Source: a virus
Direction: 5' to 3' (one strand)
IMG/VR virus record: IMGVR_UViG_3300021185_003522
Coordinates: 32,001 to 96,000 of that record
Length of the DNA: 64,000 nt
In this document: in pieces, positions 2,838 to 57,533 of the stretch
Layout: each line of letters starts with the position of its first letter
Numbering within the stretch: position 1 is the first letter of the stretch
Translations under genes and position numbers: made by a program
The notes under the pieces: model-generated
The model's database searches: none
Seen by the model: the letters and a program-made list of their open reading frames with translations, nothing else
Told to the model about the DNA's origin: nothing

Positions 2838-4333
2838 ACTGTTACGCCGTATTCTTTTTCAAAGCGATTAGCATCAGACCTGTCATCAACCATTGGCTCG
2901 CCTCTTATGTTAAGGCTAGTATTTAACAACATGGGACAACCTGTCTTTCTATACCATGCACTCAATAACCGCCTTATGCCACTATCATTATCTGGAACTG
3001 TTTGTACTCTGCTTGTTCCATCCACATGTATAATAGCCGGAAACTCTTCTGGCTTGGTGCAACGAGCAACCACCTGCATGTAACGACTTGTGGGTTGATA
3101 AAGAGGCATTGCAAAATAGTCATGTACATGCTCTTCAAGTATTACAGGAGCAAAAGGTCTAAACTTTTGTCTACGTTTAATTTCATTTACTCGATCTTTA
3201 ATGTCTGCTCCGCGTGGATCAGCAAGTAAACTTCTATTGCCCAGTGCTCTTGGACCAAATTCTGCACGTCCATTTGCAACTCCAACAATTTGATTTGTTT
3301 CTAATTCTTTCAACAGTTCGTCTACTGGATATTCTCCTGAGATATTTGAGCCCAGATAAGGTGTTGTAAAGTTTATGTCTCTACCATATGCATAAGCGGC
3401 CGCACCTAAACTGCTTCCTGCATCGCCTGGGTTTGGCATTATCCATATTTTGTTAAACAGTTCTCCCAATCGTCGATTGATAACACAGTTAAGAGCAACA
3501 CCGCCCATGTAAACTAGATTTTTACTAGTGCCAAGAGCCTTTGCTCTACGCATCACACCCATAACCATTTCTTCGCATAACCGTTGTCCTGCGGCGGCAA
3601 TATCCTCTACTGTAACATCAGCTGCAAACTCAACGTCATCAATGCCAAGGTGTAGATTATCTTTGAACAGTGGAATATCTGTAAATCGCACAGTTGCACG
3701 TTTTAATGTATTGTATGCCTTGTCAGCATCGCCGTAAGCAGCCATACCCATTGTGATGTATTCTTCATCCATTGGCTTTAATCCGCAACGTTTGGTTACT
3801 GCACTGTAGAACATACCAATACTGTGTGGATATGATTGCTTGTATAACAGTTTGTAATTTGCTTTAGCGTGTTCGCCTGCTAGGCATGCACCGTTGTAGT
3901 ATGCATGGTATATGCTGATTGTATCTGATTCACCAATAGCATCTATTACCACAACTGTTGCATCATCAAATGGTGATGTTTGAAAGCCTGCGGCCGCATG
4001 AGATAGATGATGTCCAACACTGCTGATTTCTGCAGATGTTTCATTCATTATATAAGGAATAGTACGTAGTAGTTCAGTTTGTGTACGCCAAGCACCGCCC
4101 CAACTTTCTCCGCTTTTGATTTTACGCAGTTGTCGTAGATGTGGCTTTTCATAGTATACTATCTTATCAAAAGGTCCGTATTCTTTTGCCTTCTGTTGTA
4201 GACTTACTGGAATAGTGCTATCGTTTTTGATCTTGCTGTAACGTTCTGCATGTCCTGCAAACAATACTCGGTGATTGTGCAGTACAGTTAAAGCCGCGTC
4301 GTGAAATCCTGCACTAACTCCTAGTATTCTCAT
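2828..4333 (-). CDS. Carbamoyltransferase (CmcH/NodU/TobZ family)
   Basis: HDAA, HHLSHAA, GGVALNC, GDAG, GPRALGNRS, FRPFAP and LLNTSLN motifs. Confidence 0.95.
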   Translation of the reverse strand: MRILGVSAGFHDAALTVLHNHRVLFAGHAERYSKIKNDSTIPVSLQQKAKEYGPFDKIVYYEKPHLRQLRKIKSGESWGGAWRTQTELLRTIPYIMNETSAEISSVGHHLSHAAAGFQTSPFDDATVVVIDAIGESDTISIYHAYYNGACLAGEHAKANYKLLYKQSYPHSIGMFYSAVTKRCGLKPMDEEYITMGMAAYGDADKAYNTLKRATVRFTDIPLFKDNLHLGIDDVEFAADVTVEDIAAAGQRLCEEMVMGVMRRAKALGTSKNLVYMGGVALNCVINRRLGELFNKIWIMPNPGDAGSSLGAAAYAYGRDINFTTPYLGSNISGEYPVDELLKELETNQIVGVANGRAEFGPRALGNRSLLADPRGADIKDRVNEIKRRQKFRPFAPVILEEHVHDYFAMPLYQPTSRYMQVVARCTKPEEFPAIIHVDGTSRVQTVPDNDSGIRRLLSAWYRKTGCPMLLNTSLNIRGEPMVDDRSDANRFEKEYGVTVCS

Positions 4334-4863: not shown

Positions 4864-5967
4864 TTACCAACCTATCTTCTCCCAAGGAACATCTTTGTTG
4901 CCAAAGTGTCCGTATGTGCAATTTGCACTGTAGTTGTAAAAGTTGAAAAGATCAAATCTATCAATTATACCTTTAGGTGTGAGATCAATGTTTTCACGTA
5001 TAAACTTTTGTATACTGCGATTGTGTCCATTTGAATCTATGTAGACACTGGTAGGTTCTTTTACACCAATGGCATATGATATCTGTATTTGACACCAGTC
5101 TGCCATGTCGTCTGCTACAACGTTCTTTGCTAACCAACGTGCCATATATGCTGCCGTTCTATCTACTTTTGTAGGATCTTTTCCTGAGAAAGCACCACCA
5201 CCATGAGGAGCAAAGCCGCCATAGGTATCAACGATAATTTTGCGTCCTGTAAGGCCAGTGTCACCATCAGGACCACCAATGACAAAATTGCCAGTTGGAT
5301 TAAGATGGAATACAGTCTTGTCATCTATTAAATCTCCTAGTACTTCTTCGCATGCCGATCTTGTAGCCATACGTGCGGGTTCATAAAAGCTCTCATCTTT
5401 GTGTTGTTGACTTACCACAACTTGATCAATACGTTTTACCTTACCGCCGTCATACTCTACACTAACTTGACTCTTAGCATCAGGTCCAAGATATTTGTAT
5501 CCATCTACACGTTTTTCTTTTATATTTTTTAATATTTCATGAGAATAGTAAATTGGGGCGGGCAGATACGCATCATTCCCATTGCATGCGTAACCAAACA
5601 TAATACCTTGATCACCTGCACCAAAATCGTCTGTGCCCAGTGCAATGTCGGCACTTTGTGAGTGCAATTGATTGTTGATTGTTTTATTATCAACTGTCAG
5701 TTTATCCCAATGAAATCCCGCTTGCTCGTAGCCAATCTCTTTTACTTTGTCTCTTATAATTTGTTCAACTTGTTCATCAGAGATATTAAAGTTTTTAACT
5801 TCACCTGCTAGTACAACATAGTTTGTTGTGACCATTGTTTCAACTGCTACTCTGGTTGTTTCATCACCGGCTTTGAGTCCAGCGTCAACCAATGCATCTG
5901 ATATTTGGTCTGCTATTTTGTCAGGATGCCCTTCGCTCACTGACTCTGATGTAAAAATATAACTCAT
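4864..5967 (-). CDS. metK: S-adenosylmethionine synthetase
   Basis: FTSESVSEGHPDK, GAGDQG, GLTGRKIIVDTYGG and GGGAFSGKD signatures. Confidence 0.98.
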   Translation of the reverse strand: MSYIFTSESVSEGHPDKIADQISDALVDAGLKAGDETTRVAVETMVTTNYVVLAGEVKNFNISDEQVEQIIRDKVKEIGYEQAGFHWDKLTVDNKTINNQLHSQSADIALGTDDFGAGDQGIMFGYACNGNDAYLPAPIYYSHEILKNIKEKRVDGYKYLGPDAKSQVSVEYDGGKVKRIDQVVVSQQHKDESFYEPARMATRSACEEVLGDLIDDKTVFHLNPTGNFVIGGPDGDTGLTGRKIIVDTYGGFAPHGGGAFSGKDPTKVDRTAAYMARWLAKNVVADDMADWCQIQISYAIGVKEPTSVYIDSNGHNRSIQKFIRENIDLTPKGIIDRFDLFNFYNYSANCTYGHFGNKDVPWEKIGW

Positions 5968-50554: not shown

Positions 50555-52312
50555 ATGATTCAAATTAAAGACCTTACGGTTAAAAACTTCATGAGTGTAG
50601 GTAATGCTACACAAGCAATTAACTTTGATCGACAAGACCTCACGCTGGTACTTGGTGAGAACATTGACTTAGGTGGTGATGGTTCGCGTAACGGAACTGG
50701 TAAGACCACAATCATTAATGCACTAAGTTATGCACTCTATGGCGAAGCACTTACAAACATACGTCGTGACAACCTCATAAACAAAACTAATTCAAAAGGC
50801 ATGATGGTTAGTTTAGATTTTTGTGTTGGTGAACAATGCTATCGTATTGAACGTGGACGCAAGCCTAATGTGCTAAAGTTTTATATCAATGACAGTGAAC
50901 AAGAAGCAGATGATTATGCACAAGGTGATAGTAGAGAAACACAAGGTGCTATACTAAAACTGTTGAGCATGAGTCATACTATGTTCAAACACTTGGTAGC
51001 ATTGAACACATATACCGAACCGTTTTTGAGTCTTAAACAAAACGATCAAAGAGAGATAATCGAGCAACTGCTGGGTATCACACAACTCAGTGAACGTGCT
51101 GACAAGATCAAAGAACTTAGCAAACGCACACGTGATGATATTAAGCAAGAAGAAATGACAATCAAAGCGTTGCAAACTGCTAACGACAAAATTGGCGAAC
51201 AAATACAAGCATTAAAACGTCGACAAACACTGTGGATGAACAAGAAAGCAGAAGACGTAAAAAAGTTTGAAACTGCTATTGAAGATCTTGCACATGTTGA
51301 TATTGATGCGGAATTAGCCTCTCAGGATGACCTCCTAACGTGGACTGAACTTAACAATACACAAACACAATTACAAAAAGACATTGCCGCACTAACTGCA
51401 CAGGTTGGTAGAGCAGAAAAAGACGTTACTAGAACTAAAAAAGCAGTAGACAGTTTAGAATCAGGCACTTGTGGCAGTTGCGGACAGAGTGTTGATCATA
51501 TGGAAACACATCAACAACATGTGGCTAAAGCACAGGAGGAATACAATGGGGCAAGTGATTTCCTTAGCGAAATACAGGAAGGAATCTCTGCACTCAAGGC
51601 AGATAAAACGGAAGTTCCAGCGAGACCAAGAGTTTTTTATGATAGCGTGTCTGATGCACACAATCATAGATCAACTTTATCCTCACTTGAAACACAGCTA
51701 CAAAGCAAGCGTGCAGAAGCCGATCCTTACGTTGATCAAATAGTAGAAATGCAGACAACTGCCGCTACTGAAATAAGTTATGACAAACTAAATGACCTAA
51801 CAAGACTATACGATCATCAAGACTTCTTGTTAAAACTGTTAACAAACAAAGATAGTTTTGTGCGTAAACGTATTATCGATCAAAATCTAAGTTATTTGAA
51901 TTCAAGACTCACACACTATTTAGATAGGATTGGGTTACCGCACACAGTGATATTTCAAAACGATTTGACTGTTGAAATACAGGAACTTGGCAGAGACCTA
52001 GACTTTGACAATCTAAGTAGAGGCGAGAGAAACAGGCTTATTATCAGTATGAGCTGGGCTTTCCGTGATGTATGGGAAAGTCTGTATGGTGCTATTAACT
52101 TACTGTTTATTGATGAGATGATTGATTCGGGTATGGACACATCAGGAGTTGAAGCCGCACTTGCACTACTTAAGAAGATGGCAAGAGAACGTAGCAAAAG
52201 CATTTGGCTTGTATCACACAAAGACGAACTTGCAGGCCGAGTAAATAACTTGCTTAAAGTTGTAAAAGAAAATGGCTTCACTAGTTATAGTACGGATATA
52301 GACATAGCATGA
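50555..52312 (+). CDS. Recombination ATPase, gp46/Rad50/SbcC-like
   Basis: KNFMSVG, NGTGKT Walker A, CGSC zinc hook, LSRGE signature, LFIDE Walker B, VSH. Confidence 0.95.
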   Translation: MIQIKDLTVKNFMSVGNATQAINFDRQDLTLVLGENIDLGGDGSRNGTGKTTIINALSYALYGEALTNIRRDNLINKTNSKGMMVSLDFCVGEQCYRIERGRKPNVLKFYINDSEQEADDYAQGDSRETQGAILKLLSMSHTMFKHLVALNTYTEPFLSLKQNDQREIIEQLLGITQLSERADKIKELSKRTRDDIKQEEMTIKALQTANDKIGEQIQALKRRQTLWMNKKAEDVKKFETAIEDLAHVDIDAELASQDDLLTWTELNNTQTQLQKDIAALTAQVGRAEKDVTRTKKAVDSLESGTCGSCGQSVDHMETHQQHVAKAQEEYNGASDFLSEIQEGISALKADKTEVPARPRVFYDSVSDAHNHRSTLSSLETQLQSKRAEADPYVDQIVEMQTTAATEISYDKLNDLTRLYDHQDFLLKLLTNKDSFVRKRIIDQNLSYLNSRLTHYLDRIGLPHTVIFQNDLTVEIQELGRDLDFDNLSRGERNRLIISMSWAFRDVWESLYGAINLLFIDEMIDSGMDTSGVEAALALLKKMARERSKSIWLVSHKDELAGRVNNLLKVVKENGFTSYSTDIDIA

Positions 52313-53286
52313 ATGTAGGCAAACAATTTGCATTCCTATATGGAGCAAACGAATCGCACGATCTTATTGAGATAAGAGATATTGCATATAATCTATATCA
52401 AGGATCACGTAGTGTACGTAATCAAACAGTAATTAAATTTTTAAACACACTTCACGATTCAAATCACAATGACAAATGGAATATGCAAAAAATTTTTGTA
52501 AACGAATTTGCATCTTGGATTGGTACAGATATGTCTGCGTATGACGTAGATTACAGTGCAGGAACTACACAAAGTTTTGATAGCTTTTACCTACGACATA
52601 GGAACAAAAAGTTTCGTTGTTACACTGGTGAATATTTTTATCACTTGAAAACTTGGACAAGCAATGATATATTATGGAGTTTTGTAACTGATATTGACCA
52701 ACTTCAATCTGGCGACGCACTAGTACTAAGTTTTCCTTTTTGTGATACAGGAAATTTTTATGATATTGATAAAATTTTGAACATATGCGAAAGTTTAGAC
52801 ATACCAGTTTTGATAGACATGGCATACTATCCTCTAACTGATGCACCGACTTTTAGGTTCTTTCACACATGCATCGATACTATCGCATTCAGCCTTAGCA
52901 AGATTTTTCCAATAGCCAACTATCGCATTGGCGTAAGATACACTAAGAAAGATATATACGACGGTCAGAAACTGCATGATGATATTAATTACAATAATTT
53001 TGCAAGTTGTTACTTAGGGTATGAGCTTATAAAAAAGTACAATGTAAATTATATTGCTTCAACGTACAGGCAAAAACAATCACAGGTAAGTAAAGTTTTT
53101 GATATCATACCTAGTGATAGTGTAATTTTTGCTTTAGGCAACAAAGACTGGAATACGTACAGTAGAAGAACACTATTAGATGCTTACAAACTACAGTTTG
53201 CACCAGAAAATTTTGAAAACAGAATTTGTCTAAACACAGTTTATGAAAATTGGAGACTGTTCAATGAACTTGAAGTTACACTTTAA
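52309..53286 (+). CDS. PLP-dependent enzyme (fold type I, aminotransferase-like)
   Basis: GTTQSF, P..DTG, IDMAYY, FSLSK (Schiff-base Lys), RIG. Confidence 0.7.
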   Translation: MNVGKQFAFLYGANESHDLIEIRDIAYNLYQGSRSVRNQTVIKFLNTLHDSNHNDKWNMQKIFVNEFASWIGTDMSAYDVDYSAGTTQSFDSFYLRHRNKKFRCYTGEYFYHLKTWTSNDILWSFVTDIDQLQSGDALVLSFPFCDTGNFYDIDKILNICESLDIPVLIDMAYYPLTDAPTFRFFHTCIDTIAFSLSKIFPIANYRIGVRYTKKDIYDGQKLHDDINYNNFASCYLGYELIKKYNVNYIASTYRQKQSQVSKVFDIIPSDSVIFALGNKDWNTYSRRTLLDAYKLQFAPENFENRICLNTVYENWRLFNELEVTL

Positions 53287-53728
53287 AAACATCAGGCACA
53301 ATCCTTGTTGTAAGATTCTAGTAAACAACCTAGAACTTTATAGCGGACAAGTAAAACCTTATTATGACTTTGATATTGATGTTAATAATACAGTAAGTCT
53401 AGAAATAGTACACTTTAATAAAAAGCCAGAAGATACCATAATAGATAATGATGGCAAGATTATAGATGATCGTAGTTTTGAACTAGAAAAAATCTATGCT
53501 GAGCAACATGACTTTAAGGAACTAATTTGGAAAAGTAATTTTACTGACACCGCAGGTAAGATATACAATAGCTGTTTATTTTTTGGACCAAATGGAAGTT
53601 TTACAATTAAATTTACAATACCAGTCCTAAGATGGATATTACAAAATTCAGAGCATATAGAAGACTGGGAAGAAGATTATCCTTATTACGAAAAAGCATT
53701 TACTATACTAGAAAGCATCAATGACTAA
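53264..53728 (+). CDS. Hypothetical protein
   Basis: GGAG RBS before ATG 53264; K..DT...DG.I..D motif. Confidence 0.65.
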   Translation: MNLKLHFKNIRHNPCCKILVNNLELYSGQVKPYYDFDIDVNNTVSLEIVHFNKKPEDTIIDNDGKIIDDRSFELEKIYAEQHDFKELIWKSNFTDTAGKIYNSCLFFGPNGSFTIKFTIPVLRWILQNSEHIEDWEEDYPYYEKAFTILESIND

Positions 53729-54761
53729 CATAGAACTTATAAAAGAAATAAGTTGGGTATTAAGCCTTGCTAGTGCAAAAAATAAACTAGACGTGCCAGG
53801 CGAGTATGTTTGGGCATACCCTAAGAATGAAAACTTCAGTGAATTGCAAGCACGCAGCCGAAGTATTTTTAGCAGTGGAAATGCAATCAAAGATCCTACG
53901 GTAATTGAATATGTTCAAACATGCGATATCAATAAGTATCTACTTGATCCGTGGATAGTAAATGCGTTTGAAGGAAATTTTGTTTCTTGGTTAACTGCGA
54001 ATACTAAACATAACTTACAGAATATTGAGCTCTACAAATACGTAGCCTTCAGTGCCGGTACTCAAGAAAGTTTTGCAAACTTTTATCTTAAAAATCGCAA
54101 TAAGAGATTTAGAGTATTACGCGGTGAATACTGGTGGCATATGGATGTTTGGTCTGCACTTGGAATCAACTGGGCATATATTGAAGATGATGATATTAAA
54201 ACAAATGATATAACTATTTGTAGTATTCCTTTTGCTCTTACTGGTAAAAAACACAAACATCTTGATAATATACTTGAACAGTCTCTTAAACACAATTGTG
54301 ACGTTATGCTTGATTTTATCTATCTGCCAAATTGTAATCGCCCAATAGAAATAGACTTAGCACACGATGCAATCAGCGAAATAACTTTCAGTTTCAGTAA
54401 AACATTTCCAGTGCAGTGTGCAAAAATTGCAGTTCGCCTAACAAAACACAAACCGAATGACCCAATGCAAATAAGCAATGACGAAAATATTTGTAACAGA
54501 CTAAGTGCAGGTTTAGCATATGATATTATACAAAAATTTCCTGTAGATTACATGCCAAGAAAATATCACAACAAACAAAAATTTTGGTGTAAGAAATTAG
54601 GTTTGGATACTTCACCGGTTGTACACTTTGCCACAGGCGAAGATTATATAAAAGGACAACCAGCATGGTTTAGTAAATTTAATAACCAACAAGGAAGATA
54701 TAATCTTGGAATGCTTTTTGAAAATGACAAGTTATTAAAAAGTCTTGGATACCTATCATGA
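53721..54761 (+). CDS. Second PLP-dependent enzyme paralog
   Basis: GTQESF, GEYWWH, P...TG, LDFIY, FSFSK. Confidence 0.65.
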   Translation: MTNIELIKEISWVLSLASAKNKLDVPGEYVWAYPKNENFSELQARSRSIFSSGNAIKDPTVIEYVQTCDINKYLLDPWIVNAFEGNFVSWLTANTKHNLQNIELYKYVAFSAGTQESFANFYLKNRNKRFRVLRGEYWWHMDVWSALGINWAYIEDDDIKTNDITICSIPFALTGKKHKHLDNILEQSLKHNCDVMLDFIYLPNCNRPIEIDLAHDAISEITFSFSKTFPVQCAKIAVRLTKHKPNDPMQISNDENICNRLSAGLAYDIIQKFPVDYMPRKYHNKQKFWCKKLGLDTSPVVHFATGEDYIKGQPAWFSKFNNQQGRYNLGMLFENDKLLKSLGYLS

Positions 54762-55165
54762 CCTGGACATATAAAAACAAAACAATTACAGATATCCCCG
54801 AGGGCATTATTGGGTTTGTATACTTGATTACTAACATTACAAACAACAGAAAGTACATTGGTAAGAAACTTACTCAGTTTAAACGCAGTAAAAAGCCACT
54901 AAAAGGCAGAACAAACAAACGTAGGTATACAGTCGAAAGCGATTGGAAAGACTATTACGGAAGCAGTGATGAACTGACTGCGGATGTGGAACTATTAGGA
55001 AAAGACAAGTTTAAACGTGAAATAATGTTTTGGTGTAGCAGTAAAAGTGAACTCAGTTACATTGAAGCAAGAGAACAATTCACACACAAAGTACTAGAAT
55101 CAAAACAATGGTATAACGGGCACATACGGGTCCGTGTACACCAAAAAGGCATATTGAAAGACTAA
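54758..55165 (+). CDS. Minimal GIY-YIG nuclease (catalytic domain only)
   Basis: GFVYLITN...KYIGKK, W.DYYGSS, EAREQ, WYN; 135 aa. Confidence 0.85.
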   Translation: MTWTYKNKTITDIPEGIIGFVYLITNITNNRKYIGKKLTQFKRSKKPLKGRTNKRRYTVESDWKDYYGSSDELTADVELLGKDKFKREIMFWCSSKSELSYIEAREQFTHKVLESKQWYNGHIRVRVHQKGILKD

Positions 55166-55184
55166 ATTAACTACCCATATATTA

Positions 55185-55670
55185 ACGTCATAAACACAAT
55201 GACACAGGCACTACTAGAGCAATGCTCAGAGCAACTTTTTAAATTTCCCAAGCTAATATGACATCGTTTGATCGAGGTTCCTCGATCCACCTTGAAGTCT
55301 GCCAACGCAAGTTGTAGCCGACAGAACTGGTGCGTCAAAGGATAAGGCTAACTTAAGGCTAGAATGACATGGGCTCTGTGAAACAGATACAACCCATACG
55401 TTTGTATACTTTGTTTGAAGGGGTATACCAAACGCTCCGTTGTGAGACAAGGCTAGAGTAAGGGGTACAGCACAACCGCCCCTGATACAGTAATGTAAAT
55501 CTCTTTATTCAAATGACTGGATAACTCAGATGATGACATCTTTTCAGTTCACTTGCCCGTAGTAGGGCAAGTATGACTAAACTATCTAGATGATAACTGA
55601 TTACTTCGTTACACTCGTAATAAAATATTGCTGAAGCAAAGCGAAGCAATAGATGTCTTTAGACATCTAA
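55185..55670 (+). ncRNA. Candidate large structured non-coding RNA (or structured origin region)
   Basis: About 0.5 kb without a credible ORF; about ten stems, GCAA and GTAA tetraloops, TGAAA and TGAGA pentaloops, possible pseudoknot. Strand inferred from GNRA loop orientation. Confidence 0.65.
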
Positions 55671-55682
55671 TTAAATAAACAT

Positions 55683-56291
55683 ATGGGATTGATAAAGTTT
55701 AAACACAATAATAGAACTATTGCAATAGTGCGTAATCATAAATGTAGTACTACGACTATGTTGAGTTATGTAGCACAAGCATTATGGAATGCTGATCCTA
55801 AAGAAGAACAGTTCTATCAAAACTTTCAAAACGAAGCACCTGGTGTTTACAACAAGGCTAGATCATTTGAGCAGTTCGAGTCAGAGCTACTAGCCGCAGA
55901 CATACGCATAGCATTGTGGCGTGATCCTGTTGATAAGTTTGTGAGTGGTTTCTATCATACCATGACCAATCCGGCAAATAAAAATTTATGGATTAAGTCT
56001 CCTAGTCTAACCAACTTTCTCAAAGACATCGAAGTGTATAGGCAAAATCCAAACGTAGCAGATCACTGCGAAACAAACACTGCACGTCTTGGTCCTGACA
56101 GATCCATCTACACACACATCTACAACTACAAACACGTGCATAAGATAGCAGGAATACTCGGTGTGCCTTCATTGGACACACATCATCGCCGTGACAGTAC
56201 TATGCGAGCAGGGCCTACTGAACTGCAACGACTGCGTATACGTCAGGTTATGTTAGAAGATTATGCTAATGGCTGGTGCGAGTCTGGATAG
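55683..56291 (+). CDS. Sulfotransferase (Sulfotransfer_2-like)
   Basis: 5'-PSB-like RNHKCSTTT and 3'-PB-like RDPVDKFVSGF; TAAATA 5 nt before the ATG. Confidence 0.7.
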   Translation: MGLIKFKHNNRTIAIVRNHKCSTTTMLSYVAQALWNADPKEEQFYQNFQNEAPGVYNKARSFEQFESELLAADIRIALWRDPVDKFVSGFYHTMTNPANKNLWIKSPSLTNFLKDIEVYRQNPNVADHCETNTARLGPDRSIYTHIYNYKHVHKIAGILGVPSLDTHHRRDSTMRAGPTELQRLRIRQVMLEDYANGWCESG

Positions 56292-56596
56292 TCTCTGTAT
56301 AGAAAGTGTTGAATAGTTTCAACATCAACCCACTGATTGAAGCCTACGTGTTCTGTTTCAATATCATCTACGTTTGCTACAACATGACTCATAGCGTCAT
56401 CTAGTGCTTGCATTGATTCAAACTCCATGTCAATTCTAAACTCTGGCAAGTCCATTGAACGGAATCCTAGTTTCATTCTTGTGATTCTATACGCATGCAT
56501 CTGTGGTAATTTATCTAGGAAAAGCTTCATGTTAGCCACAAATGTTCGTGCATCTATACCTTCTTTTACATCGGCGTAAACTGTATAAACGTTCAT
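56261..56596 (-). CDS. Small dimeric alpha/beta-barrel-like protein (DUF6614-like)
   Basis: MNVY.VYAD.K.G...RITRMKLGF...EF.I.MEF...LD.A; recalled family resemblance only. Confidence 0.5.
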   Translation of the reverse strand: MNVYTVYADVKEGIDARTFVANMKLFLDKLPQMHAYRITRMKLGFRSMDLPEFRIDMEFESMQALDDAMSHVVANVDDIETEHVGFNQWVDVETIQHFLYRDYPDSHQPLA

Positions 56597-57027
56597 TAAA
56601 ATCTTCCTCCTAGTATTTCAAATCCGTCGATCTTTGTTTTGTAATCGTCTGCTTGTCCAAGATACAGATAATCAAAACCGCGTTTTTTATATATTGCACA
56701 CTCGTTTTTCAAACTGCGTATGCCTAACCGCATTCCTGGGTTTGCATAGTCCCAAGCAAATTGAACTGCTTCAACGTTCTTGTTATTATAACATCTAAGT
56801 AGACTGAATGCAACCATTTTATTTTCTTTATCATAGTAAGCATATACATCATTCTTGTCGTCGTAGTATTCTTCAGCAAAAATTGGCATTACACTTTTAA
56901 ATTTTTTATGTTTGCAGTATGCATCGTAGATTGCTTCTAGTGGTTTTTGGAACGGTGATTTCAGTTTTTTGCAGTTGTCCATCAGCGAATAGTCAGTTTC
57001 GCTTAGATTAATTCTTGCGTATATCAT
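56596..57027 (-). CDS. Aminoacyl-tRNA-dependent transferase, ATE1/Bpt C-terminal-domain-like
   Basis: MVAFS...AVQFAWDY...LG..SL..E......GFDYLYLG...YK....GFEIL. Confidence 0.65.
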   Translation of the reverse strand: MIYARINLSETDYSLMDNCKKLKSPFQKPLEAIYDAYCKHKKFKSVMPIFAEEYYDDKNDVYAYYDKENKMVAFSLLRCYNNKNVEAVQFAWDYANPGMRLGIRSLKNECAIYKKRGFDYLYLGQADDYKTKIDGFEILGGRF

Positions 57028-57533
57028 TTTCTTGGGTCTTTTCTGTGAGCAAATACTTCTTGTAGGTATTCTTCATCCCATCCATCATAGTATCCTCTGT
57101 GTGCTAACATTTTTGCATGGTCCTGAAGTTTTGTTTTATCTTGTATGAGTACAAGTGCATATTTACCCATGTTAAAGCACACACCATTTTGTTCTTCAAC
57201 TGTGTCTGGGTGATCGCCTAGTGCTAGTAAGTTACGTTTGGTAAATCCTTTTGAAGTGTTTATAACATCAACAACAAAATTAAAATATGCATCATCATAT
57301 TGCTTGGGAGGATAAGCATATATGACCACATCATTTTTGCCTAAATATTTTTTCTTAGCAAACAGAAACAAATCACGTTCAAGATCGTCACCAAGTCTAA
57401 CATCATATTTGTTGCGTAGTCTTGCCTGTCGAGCAAAAGGACAAGGCGGAAAGTTGCCTAGTGCAGGGTGCGGAACCTCAACAAAGTTAACCAACCACTG
57501 TTCAATGTCTGCTTTTACTTGATCTATTACCAA
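57024..57533 (-). CDS. Hypothetical protein (DUF1415-like CPFA motif)
   Basis: W...FV......PPCPFAR, DHP, L.LIQ; TTG start overlapping the upstream stop. Confidence 0.55.
   Translation of the reverse strand: MVIDQVKADIEQWLVNFVEVPHPALGNFPPCPFARQARLRNKYDVRLGDDLERDLFLFAKKKYLGKNDVVIYAYPPKQYDDAYFNFVVDVINTSKGFTKRNLLALGDHPDTVEEQNGVCFNMGKYALVLIQDKTKLQDHAKMLAHRGYYDGWDEEYLQEVFAHRKDPRK

Follow-up and report, generated by a model that had tools for sequence, protein, structure and literature searches.

A predicted pseudoknotted RNA with twin variable words, encoded beside small nuclease genes in uncultured aquatic T4-like phages

The window, as we call the whole 64-kb stretch of viral DNA that was analysed, carries in order gp47, an ORF, gp46, three ORFs, a GIY-YIG nuclease gene, the RNA described here, four ORFs and the gp51/gp26 hub. 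The region 55166-55682 (517 nt) after the nuclease gene contains no ORF longer than 30 aa on the + strand and, one 65-aa antisense ORF aside, exceeds every other gap in the window (the next has 136 nt), as a sequence-only reading of this DNA had noticed. Comparative data indicate that 55204-55668 (+) encodes a real structured non-coding RNA of about 465 nt, whose probable ends are placed at a conserved ACAGGC start (5') and at the last hairpin (3'). Helix numbers in the following list refer to two MAFFT alignments (genafpair or globalpair): A1, an unfitted alignment of relatives from uncultured aquatic T4-like phages (clade B), and A3, an alignment of the window-type set.

54758..55165, +: SegE-type GIY-YIG nuclease gene, catalytic domain only, 135 aa (PF19835, residues, fold)
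55154..55196, +: promoter-like region, TTGAAA (55154-59), 18 nt, TATATT (55178-83) (consensus scan, alignments)
55204..55668, +: predicted twin-word pseudoknotted non-coding RNA, ~465 nt (covariation, G-U/A-C, core model R1)
55260..55336, +: 5' multi-helix domain (A3 helices 1-5)
55260-62 with 55334-36, +: P1, closing P2, P3, P3b and P3c
55270-87, and 55288-91 with 55329-32, +: P2 and P3, inside P1
55298-301 with 55322-25, and 55303-14, +: P3b and P3c, inside P1
55369-73 with 55393-97, and 55399-409 with 55423-34, +: P5 and P6 (A3 helices 6, 8, 9; A1 helix 6)
55411-19 with 55508-16, +: pseudoknot of the P6 loop (A3 helix 10, A1 helix 7)
55455-58 with 55501-04, +: P8, around P9 (55461-65 with 55479-83) and P10 (55486-97)
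55525..55534, +: box 1, CUC followed by the 7-nt word AGAUGAU (55528-34) (parallel covariation with box 2)
55551..55572, +: P11, hairpin separating box 1 from box 2 (A1 helix 11, A3 helix 14)
55585..55594, +: box 2, UCU followed by the same word AGAUGAU (55588-94) (parallel covariation with box 1)
55627-32 with 55645-50, +: P13, with an inner GAGCG-loop-GCGA motif (A3 helices 15-17, A1 helices 12-14)
55651-57 with 55662-68, +: P14, terminal hairpin (A3 helices 15-17, A1 helices 12-14)

Judging from its profile match, the 135-aa protein consists of one complete GIY-YIG domain of SegE type. The Pfam profile PF19835 (SegE_GIY-YIG) matches residues 3-123 with an E value of 1.8e-36 and is itself covered end to end (positions 1-123 of 123), so that the protein should have no appended domain. 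A NUMOD- or HTH-type DNA-binding domain is absent, with Pfam and fold matches spanning residues 3-123 of 135, and the earlier description of the ORF as a catalytic core without such a tail holds. G19-F-V-Y22 and Y33-x-G35 occupy the positions of the conserved GIY and YIG motifs, and GFVY, Y(I/V)G, R56, E103 and N120 are invariant among 20 GIY-YIG homologues; their catalytic roles are presumed by analogy. The AF2 model (pLDDT 88.6, low in the last 12 residues) finds its best fold match (VIA-align) in the I-TevI catalytic domain 1ln0 (Z 8.5, rmsd 2.8 over 82 residues, model range 18-123), followed by 9u75 (Z 7.2), 1ycz (Z 5.5) and 2wsh (Z 5.3). Neither the protein nor its profile found a match among PDB sequences, and Foldseek with the model reached an E value of 0.26 at best. 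The earlier premise, by which a GIY-YIG core depends on an added DNA-binding domain, does not hold generally, since fold comparison shows the same GIY-YIG fold in the 134-residue chain of T4 EndoII. A length of about 135 aa is the rule for this protein in 769 phage records. Its identity follows that of gp46 (r 0.75 over 5995 pairs) and is higher, at 0.66 where gp46 is at 0.50-0.55. The gene thus seems to behave like a kept gene, unlike a purely selfish, cycling homing gene.

The single-sequence fold of the RNA is modestly better than shuffles (z -3.15 on the + strand, z -2.44 on the - strand), and it is because of the comparative data of both alignments, not the lone fold, that we regard its structure as exceeding chance. 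The 89 pairs of A3 are paired in 87.7% of cells, against 36-42% when the structure is slid, and 48 of them show compensatory change. In A1, 98.9% of the cells of 77 pairs are paired against 31-39% when slid, a control flattered by the fact that the structure came partly from A1 itself (RNAalifold); 41 of these pairs are compensatory and 0 of 500 shuffles reach the observed pairing. Compensatory change among homologues, of the kind proposed earlier as a check, is found in both sets. G-U occupies 398 cells of the RNA alignment and A-C 18, an excess that fixes the strand of the RNA. Pairs changed on both sides occur in P2, P3c, P5, P6, P9, P10 and the pseudoknot. In the P5/P6 region, A3 helices 6, 8 and 9 have 4, 4 and 4 double-changed pairs, and A1 helix 6 has 11 of 13; P1 reads GGAAC/GUUCC or GCAAC/GUUGC in relatives. 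The complementarity of the loop 55413-19 to 55508-14, first seen as a possible pseudoknot, is present and covaries, with nine pairs, six of them double-changed, and 93.5% pairing in A3, and eight pairs, five double-changed, and 98.7% pairing in A1. A3 helices 11-13, in the P8-P10 region, are paired in 98.5%, 100% and 93.9% of cells with 4, 3 and 4 compensatory pairs. The P9 loop UACAGCACAACCG (55466-78) hardly varies and is identical in 48 of 48 clade-B sequences. P11 varies little in the window-type set (1/8 pairs compensatory in A3), and its clade-B counterpart shows 5/11 (A1). Every stem that the sequence-only reading had listed is present in the window where it was placed, but not all are conserved or backed by compensatory change: the AGATG-ATGA-CATCT hairpin is missing from close relatives such as L005 and L015-L017, and TTG-TGAGA-CAA shows no compensatory change in the alignment. 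The three copies of AAGGCTA are likewise real (55344, 55355 and 55449), but the first varies (ATAGCTA in L005 and others).

In 61 of 66 representative RNAs the two boxes flanking P11 share one and the same 7-nt core, and 11 different words occur; the words are the same within each RNA and differ between clades, and for two core columns of the boxes the mutual information equals the column entropy. Gene conversion between the two boxes could mimic such parallel covariation. The complement of the word occurs inside none of 61 RNAs (0/61) and was not found near gene starts of G000 (three sense hits genome-wide), and in nuclease mRNA it is not enriched (8/60 loci against 10.5 expected). Of the variable guide-like segment suggested earlier, the variability has been borne out, in a 7-nt word that is present twice, but no target enrichment was seen in nuclease mRNA or at gene starts. 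Three readings of the boxes were set aside. A C/D-box or k-turn would use the AUGAUGA of the window, which is not kept in clade B; mimicry of tRNA NCCA fits ACCA/GCCA words only; and a GACUG-CAG pairing around box 1 conflicts with a last G that changes in step in the two boxes beside an unchanging GACUG.

The RNA is best read as its own transcription unit, that is, as an independent gene. A putative promoter lies upstream, where TTGAAA and TATATT (55154-55183) match the consensus at 10 of 12 positions, but the number of such sites is not above that in shuffles. An alternative -10 element, TAAACA (55191-96), aligns with the clade-B -10 TATATA/TAAACA after TTGACC-N17, and in alignments of clade-B relatives TTGACC-N17-TATATA stands directly before the conserved 5' ACAGGC/AUAGGC. 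At the 3' end, relative L030 has a hairpin with a U-tract that satisfies the terminator rule. The last hairpin of the window has no U-tract and does not satisfy the rule, and the next gene follows after 15 nt, so that read-through may occur. RNA-library contigs from three studies are identical to the window over 55193-55468, 55214-55452 and 55213-55420 and indicate presence only, saying nothing on the strand, level or ends of a transcript; this stretch had also served to select the runs, and no weight is given to those parts of the 4-kb stretch that lack contigs in X17-X19.

Rfam gave no match at gathering score in the 64-kb window and, at E ≤ 10 over 55100-55750, chance-level snoRNA and lncRNA matches only. 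A tRNA/tmRNA scan of the window found none, and no Rfam model of RNase P, tmRNA, group I/II introns, GOLLD, ROOL, HEARO or IMES matched it, in line with the earlier remark that RNase P, tmRNA and group I motifs were not recognisable. As judged by these models, the RNA family of the window is uncatalogued in Rfam apart from a 5' domain match to RF01718 (Polynucleobacter-1) in two relatives. The description as an uncharacterised large phage RNA thus stands for the window, which has no Rfam match, but not for the whole family, part of which is catalogued. RF01718 matches the window neither at gathering score (37 bits) nor at E ≤ 10 (55100-55750), and gave no match in 38 other relatives (19 searched at E ≤ 1, 19 at gathering score). 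Its full 141-nt motif starts the RNA in L066 (118.9 bits) and L063 (120.6 bits). In L066 the motif (3436-3571) comes directly after the GIY-YIG stop and is followed by the family core and 3' domains (nhmmer E 1.5e-48 over 3545-3873, overlapping the last 27 nt of the motif). Because this full-length match starts the RNA in L066, the comparison suggests that Polynucleobacter-1 may be the 5' part of a longer phage RNA. The published table entry for Polynucleobacter-1 has 'y' in two columns (Weinberg et al. 2010, PMC2864571).

The family is widespread in uncultured aquatic T4-like myoviruses, with at least 119 contigs found in the RNA-selected set. Blastn of the window RNA gives 73-98% identity to 15 loci, and conservation of the RNA extends to relatives whose gp46 identity is about 55-60%. 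At 55361-55485 the window scores 111 bits with core model R1 (P5, P6 and the P9 loop), whose 37 seed sequences include it, and an nhmmer profile of the RNA, which also contains the window, reaches E 1e-100 on G000. The RNA occupies a fixed slot, flanked on one side by the recombination-nuclease genes gp47/gp46 and on the other by the baseplate-hub genes gp51/gp26: in the 30 loci inspected, a gp46 or hub homologue, wherever one is retained, lies on the side of the RNA where it is expected. Neither the gap nor two divergent relatives gave a real BLAST match among 50,697 phage records, a collection from which records close to the genome of the window may be masked; no cultured phage with the RNA was found in it, and megablast of the 12 kb around the locus against this collection gave none. 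The P9-loop 17-mer has 87 matches in 596 Gb of prokaryote genomes, where about 70 were computed for chance, and no cellular homologue was found; five of the 87 hold the RNA, all on MAG or metagenome-derived contigs, four of them of 2-11 kb.

The link with the nuclease gene is tight. No more than 150 nt separate a GIY-YIG gene from the RNA in 81 of the 119 RNA-selected loci listed, and in 95 of them the gene is found within about 3 kb. Of 80 nuclease-selected loci 76 contain the RNA, the other four ending within 242 nt of the gene; the synteny with homologous GIY-YIG genes that had been named as a check does recur. Both types of neighbouring nuclease are small stand-alone enzymes without DNA-binding domains, purifying selection and mostly vertical inheritance mark the GIY-YIG gene, and the conserved scaffold carries a short hypervariable word. 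All this would suit a system in which the RNA guides, scaffolds or restrains the adjacent GIY-YIG or PDDEXK nuclease, with the twin word as specificity element, close to the guide, scaffold or regulator of the sequence-only reading. However, the GIY-YIG gene is absent from nine of the 119 listed loci despite room on both sides, and five of these nine also lack PDDEXK. A PF24608 PDDEXK gene takes its place in six loci, none with GIY-YIG, and a tree built from 79 distinct RNA cores shows at least four switches between the two types. RNA and nuclease gene form separate, mostly divergent units, 73 of the 81 adjacent GIY-YIG genes lying on the strand opposite to the RNA; linkage holds in either orientation, and in L094, L119 and L160 the gene is upstream on the same strand. 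Three cultured phages, Melnitz, P-SSM2 and S-SRM01, have GIY-YIG homologues at 44-58% identity but no credible RNA: core model R1, which finds the RNA in G000 at E 2e-28, has no match in the first two and one 16-bit match (E 0.028) in S-SRM01. The word AGAUGAU is the same in GIY-YIG-linked (window) and PDDEXK-linked (L098) RNAs, which speaks against a partnership, yet would be expected if the RNA set the specificity and the effector were exchangeable. Seven nucleotides are too short for a unique DNA target, the lack of enrichment of the complement in nuclease mRNA and gene starts points the same way, and we know of no RNA-guided GIY-YIG or PDDEXK enzyme. We therefore consider an RNA-nuclease system unlikely; the nuclease looks like a neighbour of the RNA, not a partner.

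Quite unlikely, in our view, is a cis-regulatory leader, a long riboswitch-like or attenuator-like 5' UTR of the downstream gene. It would account for the same-strand ORF of at least 60 aa that starts within 100 nt after the RNA in 52 of 90 distinct loci, for the hairpin without U-tract 15 nt before the next gene in the window and for an RNA-library contig of a diverged relative that covers 55436-55759; moreover, if the two marked columns of the RF01718 entry are 'RNA?' and 'cis-reg?', as we take them to be, that motif was rated probably cis-regulatory. In contrast, the downstream gene is convergent in 38 of the 90 loci, the genes downstream fall into at least 10 unrelated groups, the RNA of L030 ends in a terminator-like hairpin with U-tract, and size, pseudoknot and twin words are atypical of a leader. 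Among the downstream products, homology between a 257-aa clade-B protein and the ATE_C-like 143-aa protein of the window was considered but is not claimed (blastp E 0.024).

The transcript of a replication element might prime or mark an origin, as at the R-loop of T4 ori(uvsY) or with ColE1 RNA II, or the words flanking the palindrome might be iterons acting at the DNA level. The position between recombination/replication and baseplate genes, the two identical direct repeats around an inverted repeat and the clustering of nuclease genes at the slot are compatible with such a role. It is nevertheless very unlikely, as the G-U/A-C asymmetry and the compensatory changes in 14-17 helices show selection on RNA of a single strand, and neither an AT-rich unwinding stretch nor an iteron array beyond two copies is present. 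We give only a slender chance to a programmable platform, in which the two fast-evolving 7-nt words would set a two-site target and the adjacent GIY-YIG or PDDEXK nuclease would be recruited to it. The shared word beside both nuclease types fits this idea, and loci without an adjacent nuclease and cultured phages without a credible RNA argue against it; if true, it would be an RNA-specified nuclease with exchangeable effectors. A functionless remnant, such as what is left of a DNA-binding tail that a longer Seg endonuclease once had, could explain a gap directly after a truncated-looking ORF (T4 SegE-type proteins are longer), but the chance of it is negligible given conservation to about 55-60% gp46 identity, compensatory pairs, a location mostly on the strand opposite the nuclease gene in relatives and the ~135-aa rule.

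We propose instead, with slightly better than even confidence, that the locus holds an independent, trans-acting RNA gene whose twin words serve a putative reader, and whose flank is a slot for free-standing endonuclease genes. The proposal builds on the observed RNA-level structure, strand, conservation, genome slot and twin words. The folded core (P5, P6, the pseudoknot, P8-P10 and the GNRA-capped P11) would form a rigid scaffold that displays two identical single-stranded 7-nt words, one on each side of P11. Both words would be bound in trans by a sequence-specific reader, which could be a dimeric protein or a nucleic acid carrying a complementary site for each copy, and which would co-evolve with the phage lineage. 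The 135-aa protein would be a Seg-type free-standing endonuclease, with the PDDEXK gene as its equivalent in other lineages, and its gene would occupy the slot directly 5' of the conserved RNA gene. Adjacency would then result from insertion or homing beside a conserved sequence, together with long vertical transmission of both genes, with no RNA-protein machine. The very tight linkage (95/119 listed, 76/80) counts against this proposal, and so does the apparent kept-gene behaviour of GIY-YIG (r 0.75, invariant presumed catalytic residues), which is unlike that of a purely selfish homing gene.

Few large orphan RNAs are known, and the family joins them with a widespread, ~0.45-kb tertiary-folded RNA from uncultured marine T4-like phages, themselves an abundant group. 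Words that change together and yet remain identical offer a concrete handle on the reader of the RNA, and the repeated presence of unrelated free-standing nuclease genes in one slot bears on how homing endonucleases choose and retain their sites. A nuclease gene beside a structured RNA need not imply an RNA-guided enzyme, and this expectation should be tempered.

In OMEGA systems the RNA is co-oriented with the nuclease gene and overlaps its end, the guide is about 16-20 nt long and the two are obligate partners. The present locus resembles OMEGA/HEARO systems (IscB or TnpB with omega RNA; PMC13565253) in the small nuclease gene beside a large structured RNA with a short variable segment. In contrast, here the orientation varies, the word has 7 nt and occurs twice, and either partner is found without the other; neither obligate co-occurrence (9/119 listed loci, cultured phages) nor co-orientation (73/81 on the opposite strand) was observed. 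T4 carries the free-standing Seg-type GIY-YIG homing endonucleases SegA-G, with SegB inside the tRNA gene cluster. The PF19835 domain, the I-TevI-like fold and the stand-alone gene beside a conserved RNA gene recall T4 Seg endonucleases and I-TevI, whereas the GIY-YIG protein described here appears to have no DNA-binding tail and to be nearly fixed, mostly vertical and strongly conserved. At the slot the gene is absent from nine of 119 listed loci with room and was swapped for PDDEXK at least four times, and otherwise it is nearly fixed and follows gp46. GOLLD, ROOL, OLE and raiA are large ornate orphan RNAs, with which the phage RNA shares a size of hundreds of nucleotides, many covarying helices, phage association, GNRA loops and a pseudoknot. 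It has no Rfam match to them and a different architecture, and to our knowledge twin identical variable words and a fixed T4-like slot are not known from any of them. Large ornate orphan RNAs have been reported from bacteria and phages (10.1101/2024.12.08.627333, PMC10861870). Polynucleobacter-1, itself an orphan RNA, resembles the 5' domain of the window in its closing helix around two hairpins. While RF01718 is described in Rfam as a 141-nt sRNA from Burkholderiales and fresh or estuarine water, the RNA described here has about 465 nt and belongs to marine T4-like phages, and the pseudoknot and the twin words are features of the phage family beyond the 141 nt of Polynucleobacter-1.

The RNA that follows the GIY-YIG nuclease gene is real and widespread, and just a fragment of one of its subclades has been catalogued. 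The deciding evidence is comparative rather than drawn from single-sequence folding, in which the sequence by itself gave only a modest gain over shuffles (z -3.15 on the plus strand and -2.44 on the minus strand). No plus-strand ORF longer than 30 aa lies within 55166-55682, which is the largest ORF-free gap in the window once a 65-aa antisense ORF is discounted, as the sequence-only reading had proposed; all the stems it named, the loop with its 3' complement and the AAGGCTA copies were found in place. The parts of the RNA and the preceding gene are as follows.

Features of the nuclease-RNA region (window coordinates)
54758-55165, +: ORF of the GIY-YIG nuclease, 135 aa
5' start of the RNA: AGGC-rich, single-stranded
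55260-62 with 55334-36, +: helix P1, closing P2 and P3/P3b/P3c
55270-87, +: P2
55288-55332, +: P3/P3b/P3c
55369-97, +: P5
55399-55434, +: P6, whose loop makes the pseudoknot
55455-58 with 55501-04, +: P8, enclosing P9 and P10
55461-83, +: P9, with the near-invariant loop UACAGCACAACCG
55486-97, +: P10
55525-34, +: box 1, CUC plus 7 nt
55551-72, +: P11, between box 1 and box 2
55585-94, +: box 2, UCU plus 7 nt
55627-50, +: P13, GAGCG-loop-GCGA motif
55651-68, +: P14, terminal hairpin

Relatives of the nuclease led to 80 IMG/VR loci. In 15 of these the gap shares 73-98% identity with that of the window, and a profile search detected the RNA element in 75; in one more (L063) it lies 2.2 kb downstream, and in the other four the contig ends at most 242 nt from the gene. 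A scan with the 17-nt P9 loop alone added at least 119 loci. Covariation was scored on plain MAFFT alignments, unfitted to any structure. For clade B (48 non-redundant sequences), whose structure was derived in part by RNAalifold from the same alignment, 98.9% of cells in 77 pairs are paired, compared with 31-39% with the partner slid, and both sides change in 41 pairs, compared with 6-16 in the slid control; none of 500 shuffles scored as high. The window-type set (17 sequences) gave 87.7% paired cells over 89 pairs (36-42% slid) and 48 compensatory pairs (12-25 slid). Compensatory change far above the controls in both sets bears out the proposal of a structured RNA. Since G-U plus U-G cells number 398 and A-C plus C-A cells 18, the plus strand alone is able to form the helices. 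The pseudoknot that the sequence-only reading had put forward as possible (55411-19 with 55508-16) shows compensatory change at 6 of its 9 pairs among window-type sequences and at 5 of 8 among those of clade B, for example UAUUGUGUA/UACACAAUG versus UAUCAUACA/UGUAUGGUG; one mini-hairpin alternates between GNRA and UNCG loops.

In clade B, TTGACC-N17-TATATA or TAAACA stands immediately 5' of a conserved A(C/U)AGGC, and because this promoter-like site precedes the conserved 5' motif, we place the start of the window RNA near 55204. TTGAAA-18-TATATT at 55154-83 is an alternative promoter-like site, such sites being no more frequent than chance. A U-tract follows the last hairpin in one relative (L030); none was found at that position in the window. 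Window-identical contigs in RNA libraries from three studies (55193-55468, 55214-55452 and 55213-55420) indicate presence only, the runs having been picked using this stretch and DNA carry-over being possible. A single metatranscriptome run, X15, yielded 38 contigs at 88-99% identity spanning all of 53500-57500, so that one sample contains several diverged relatives of this phage. RNAalifold also paired the 5' AGGCA (window 55205-09) with UGACU just 5' of box 2 (clade-B alignment columns 29-34 with 355-360), four of the five pairs being invariant and the fifth U-G, C-G or U-A. AUGACU precedes each box in the window; the 5' end has two to three AGGCA-like motifs, and there are three copies of AUGA(C/U).

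The twin-word design of the two boxes is unusual. Both carry AGAUGAU in the window, and the two words are the same in 61 of 66 representative RNAs, with 11 distinct words including ACCACAG, GCCACAG, AGCACAU, ACAUGAU, GCAUGAU and ACAUGAA. Mutual information between the boxes equals column entropy at two core columns in clade B, and close relatives differ concordantly (AGAUGAU versus AGAUGAG in both boxes). No complement of the words was found within the RNA, and neither phage gene starts nor the nuclease mRNA are enriched for one. Because the boxes co-vary as identical and not complementary words, the pattern points to a putative outside reader shared by two exposed segments. A more mundane alternative is that the two boxes are kept alike by gene conversion.

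The 135-aa protein is an intact GIY-YIG domain without an appendage, in agreement with the earlier description of a catalytic core lacking a tail, because Pfam PF19835 (SegE_GIY-YIG) covers residues 3-123 (E 1.8e-36), G19-F-V-Y22, Y33-x-G35, R56, E103 and N120 are invariant in 20 homologues, and the AlphaFold model (pLDDT 88.6) has the catalytic domain of I-TevI as its best structural match (1ln0; Z 8.5, rmsd 2.8 over 82 residues). Further structural matches are PD-T4-3 (Z 7.2), UvrC (Z 5.5) and T4 EndoII (Z 5.3). The protein also matches PHROG 447 (2e-39), whose label 'NAD synthetase' is a misnomer. In the 125-kb, 37.8% G+C virus record to which the window belongs, the RNA and the nuclease gene are both single-copy.

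Linkage of the two is strong. Among the 119 RNA-selected loci listed, of which 12 are undecidable and 3 are chance motif matches, a GIY-YIG gene lies at most 150 nt from the RNA in 81: upstream on the opposite strand in 73, upstream and co-oriented with the RNA in 5, which is the window's arrangement, and touching the extrapolated RNA bounds in 3. Another 14 have the gene within ~3 kb, and 9 with room on both sides have none.

Five findings tell against the two being dedicated partners. The RNA's genome slot is constant and what flanks it varies: gp47/gp46 come first, followed by variable genes, the RNA, further variable genes and the hub genes gp51/gp26, and the downstream genes form at least 10 unrelated groups, 38 of 90 being convergent. 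The nuclease itself is swapped. Six loci (L085, L092, L098, L108, L174 and L176) carry a gene for a ~170-aa PF24608 protein ('phage putative PDDEXK endonuclease'; E 1e-23 to 4e-26 in three loci tested), directly 5' of the RNA in the GIY-YIG gene's place in four; none of the six has a GIY-YIG gene, and the two did not co-occur in the loci examined.

Positions of PDDEXK genes
L098, 8315-8821, -
L108, 6634-7164, -
L174, 10702-11223, +

A tree built from 79 distinct RNA cores puts the six PDDEXK loci in at least four places, a rough count given that the tree is based on ~120 nt, and the core of L176 shares 91% identity with one linked to GIY-YIG. The phages Melnitz, S-SRM01 and P-SSM2 have GIY-YIG homologues of 44-58% identity, set in different contexts with no long gap; an RNA-core covariance model that matched record G000 at E 2e-28 found nothing in two of these phages and one 16-bit match (E 0.028) in the third. 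Finally, the same word, AGAUGAU, stands beside both nuclease types, in PDDEXK-linked L098 and in the window. The observation of a structured RNA is confirmed, and its reading as a partner of this nuclease is unsupported.

A purely selfish homing gene is argued against as well: GIY-YIG identity follows that of gp46 (r 0.75 over 5995 pairs) and exceeds it at depth, and the catalytic residues are invariant. On these grounds and the five findings, we read the gene as a probable Seg-type endonuclease gene, long resident in a slot that would attract free-standing nuclease genes, with homing putative.

Other genes also surround the slot. In much of clade B, a conserved ~250-260-aa protein without a Pfam match (L025 1746-2516, minus strand, and 36 other distinct loci) is encoded on the RNA's strand, starting 15-21 nt past it, and could be co-transcribed. 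In the window, three genes form a cassette convergent with the RNA, and several other loci have homologues of them close to the RNA.

Cassette genes (together at window 56261-57533, -)
DUF6614, E 1.8e-18
143 aa, sub-threshold ATE_C (24.1 bits, cut-off 25)
169 aa, weak DUF6875 match

Paralogous ~330-aa ORFs (52309-53286 and 53721-54761, plus strand) separate gp46 from the nuclease gene, the first with weak aminotransferase-fold matches and the second with none; together with a sulfotransferase-like ORF (55683-56291) they look like variable cargo. Five RNA loci (L253, L265, L279, L281 and L283) are on contigs assigned to MAGs or metagenome-derived assemblies, four titled Neomarinimicrobiota, an archaeon, Pacearchaeota and Pseudobdellovibrionaceae. 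Three of the five also have the GIY-YIG gene. The five are probably phage contigs placed in cellular genomes by binning.

The window matches no Rfam family. A table in Weinberg et al. 2010 (PMC2864571) classes Polynucleobacter-1 (RF01718), from Burkholderiales and from fresh or estuarine water, as probably cis-regulatory; we found nothing further on the RNA in the literature accessible, where a cyanophage paper covers only Rfam-known elements. RF01718 matched none of the other 38 of 40 relatives scanned and is full-length in L063 (120.6 bits, 5590-5725) and in L066 (118.9 bits, 3436-3571), where it directly follows the nuclease stop. Because the motif in L066 is followed, with slight overlap, by the core and 3' domains common to the family, the catalogued 141-nt Polynucleobacter-1 looks like the 5' domain of one subclade's ~450-nt phage RNA, a fragment of a longer gene.
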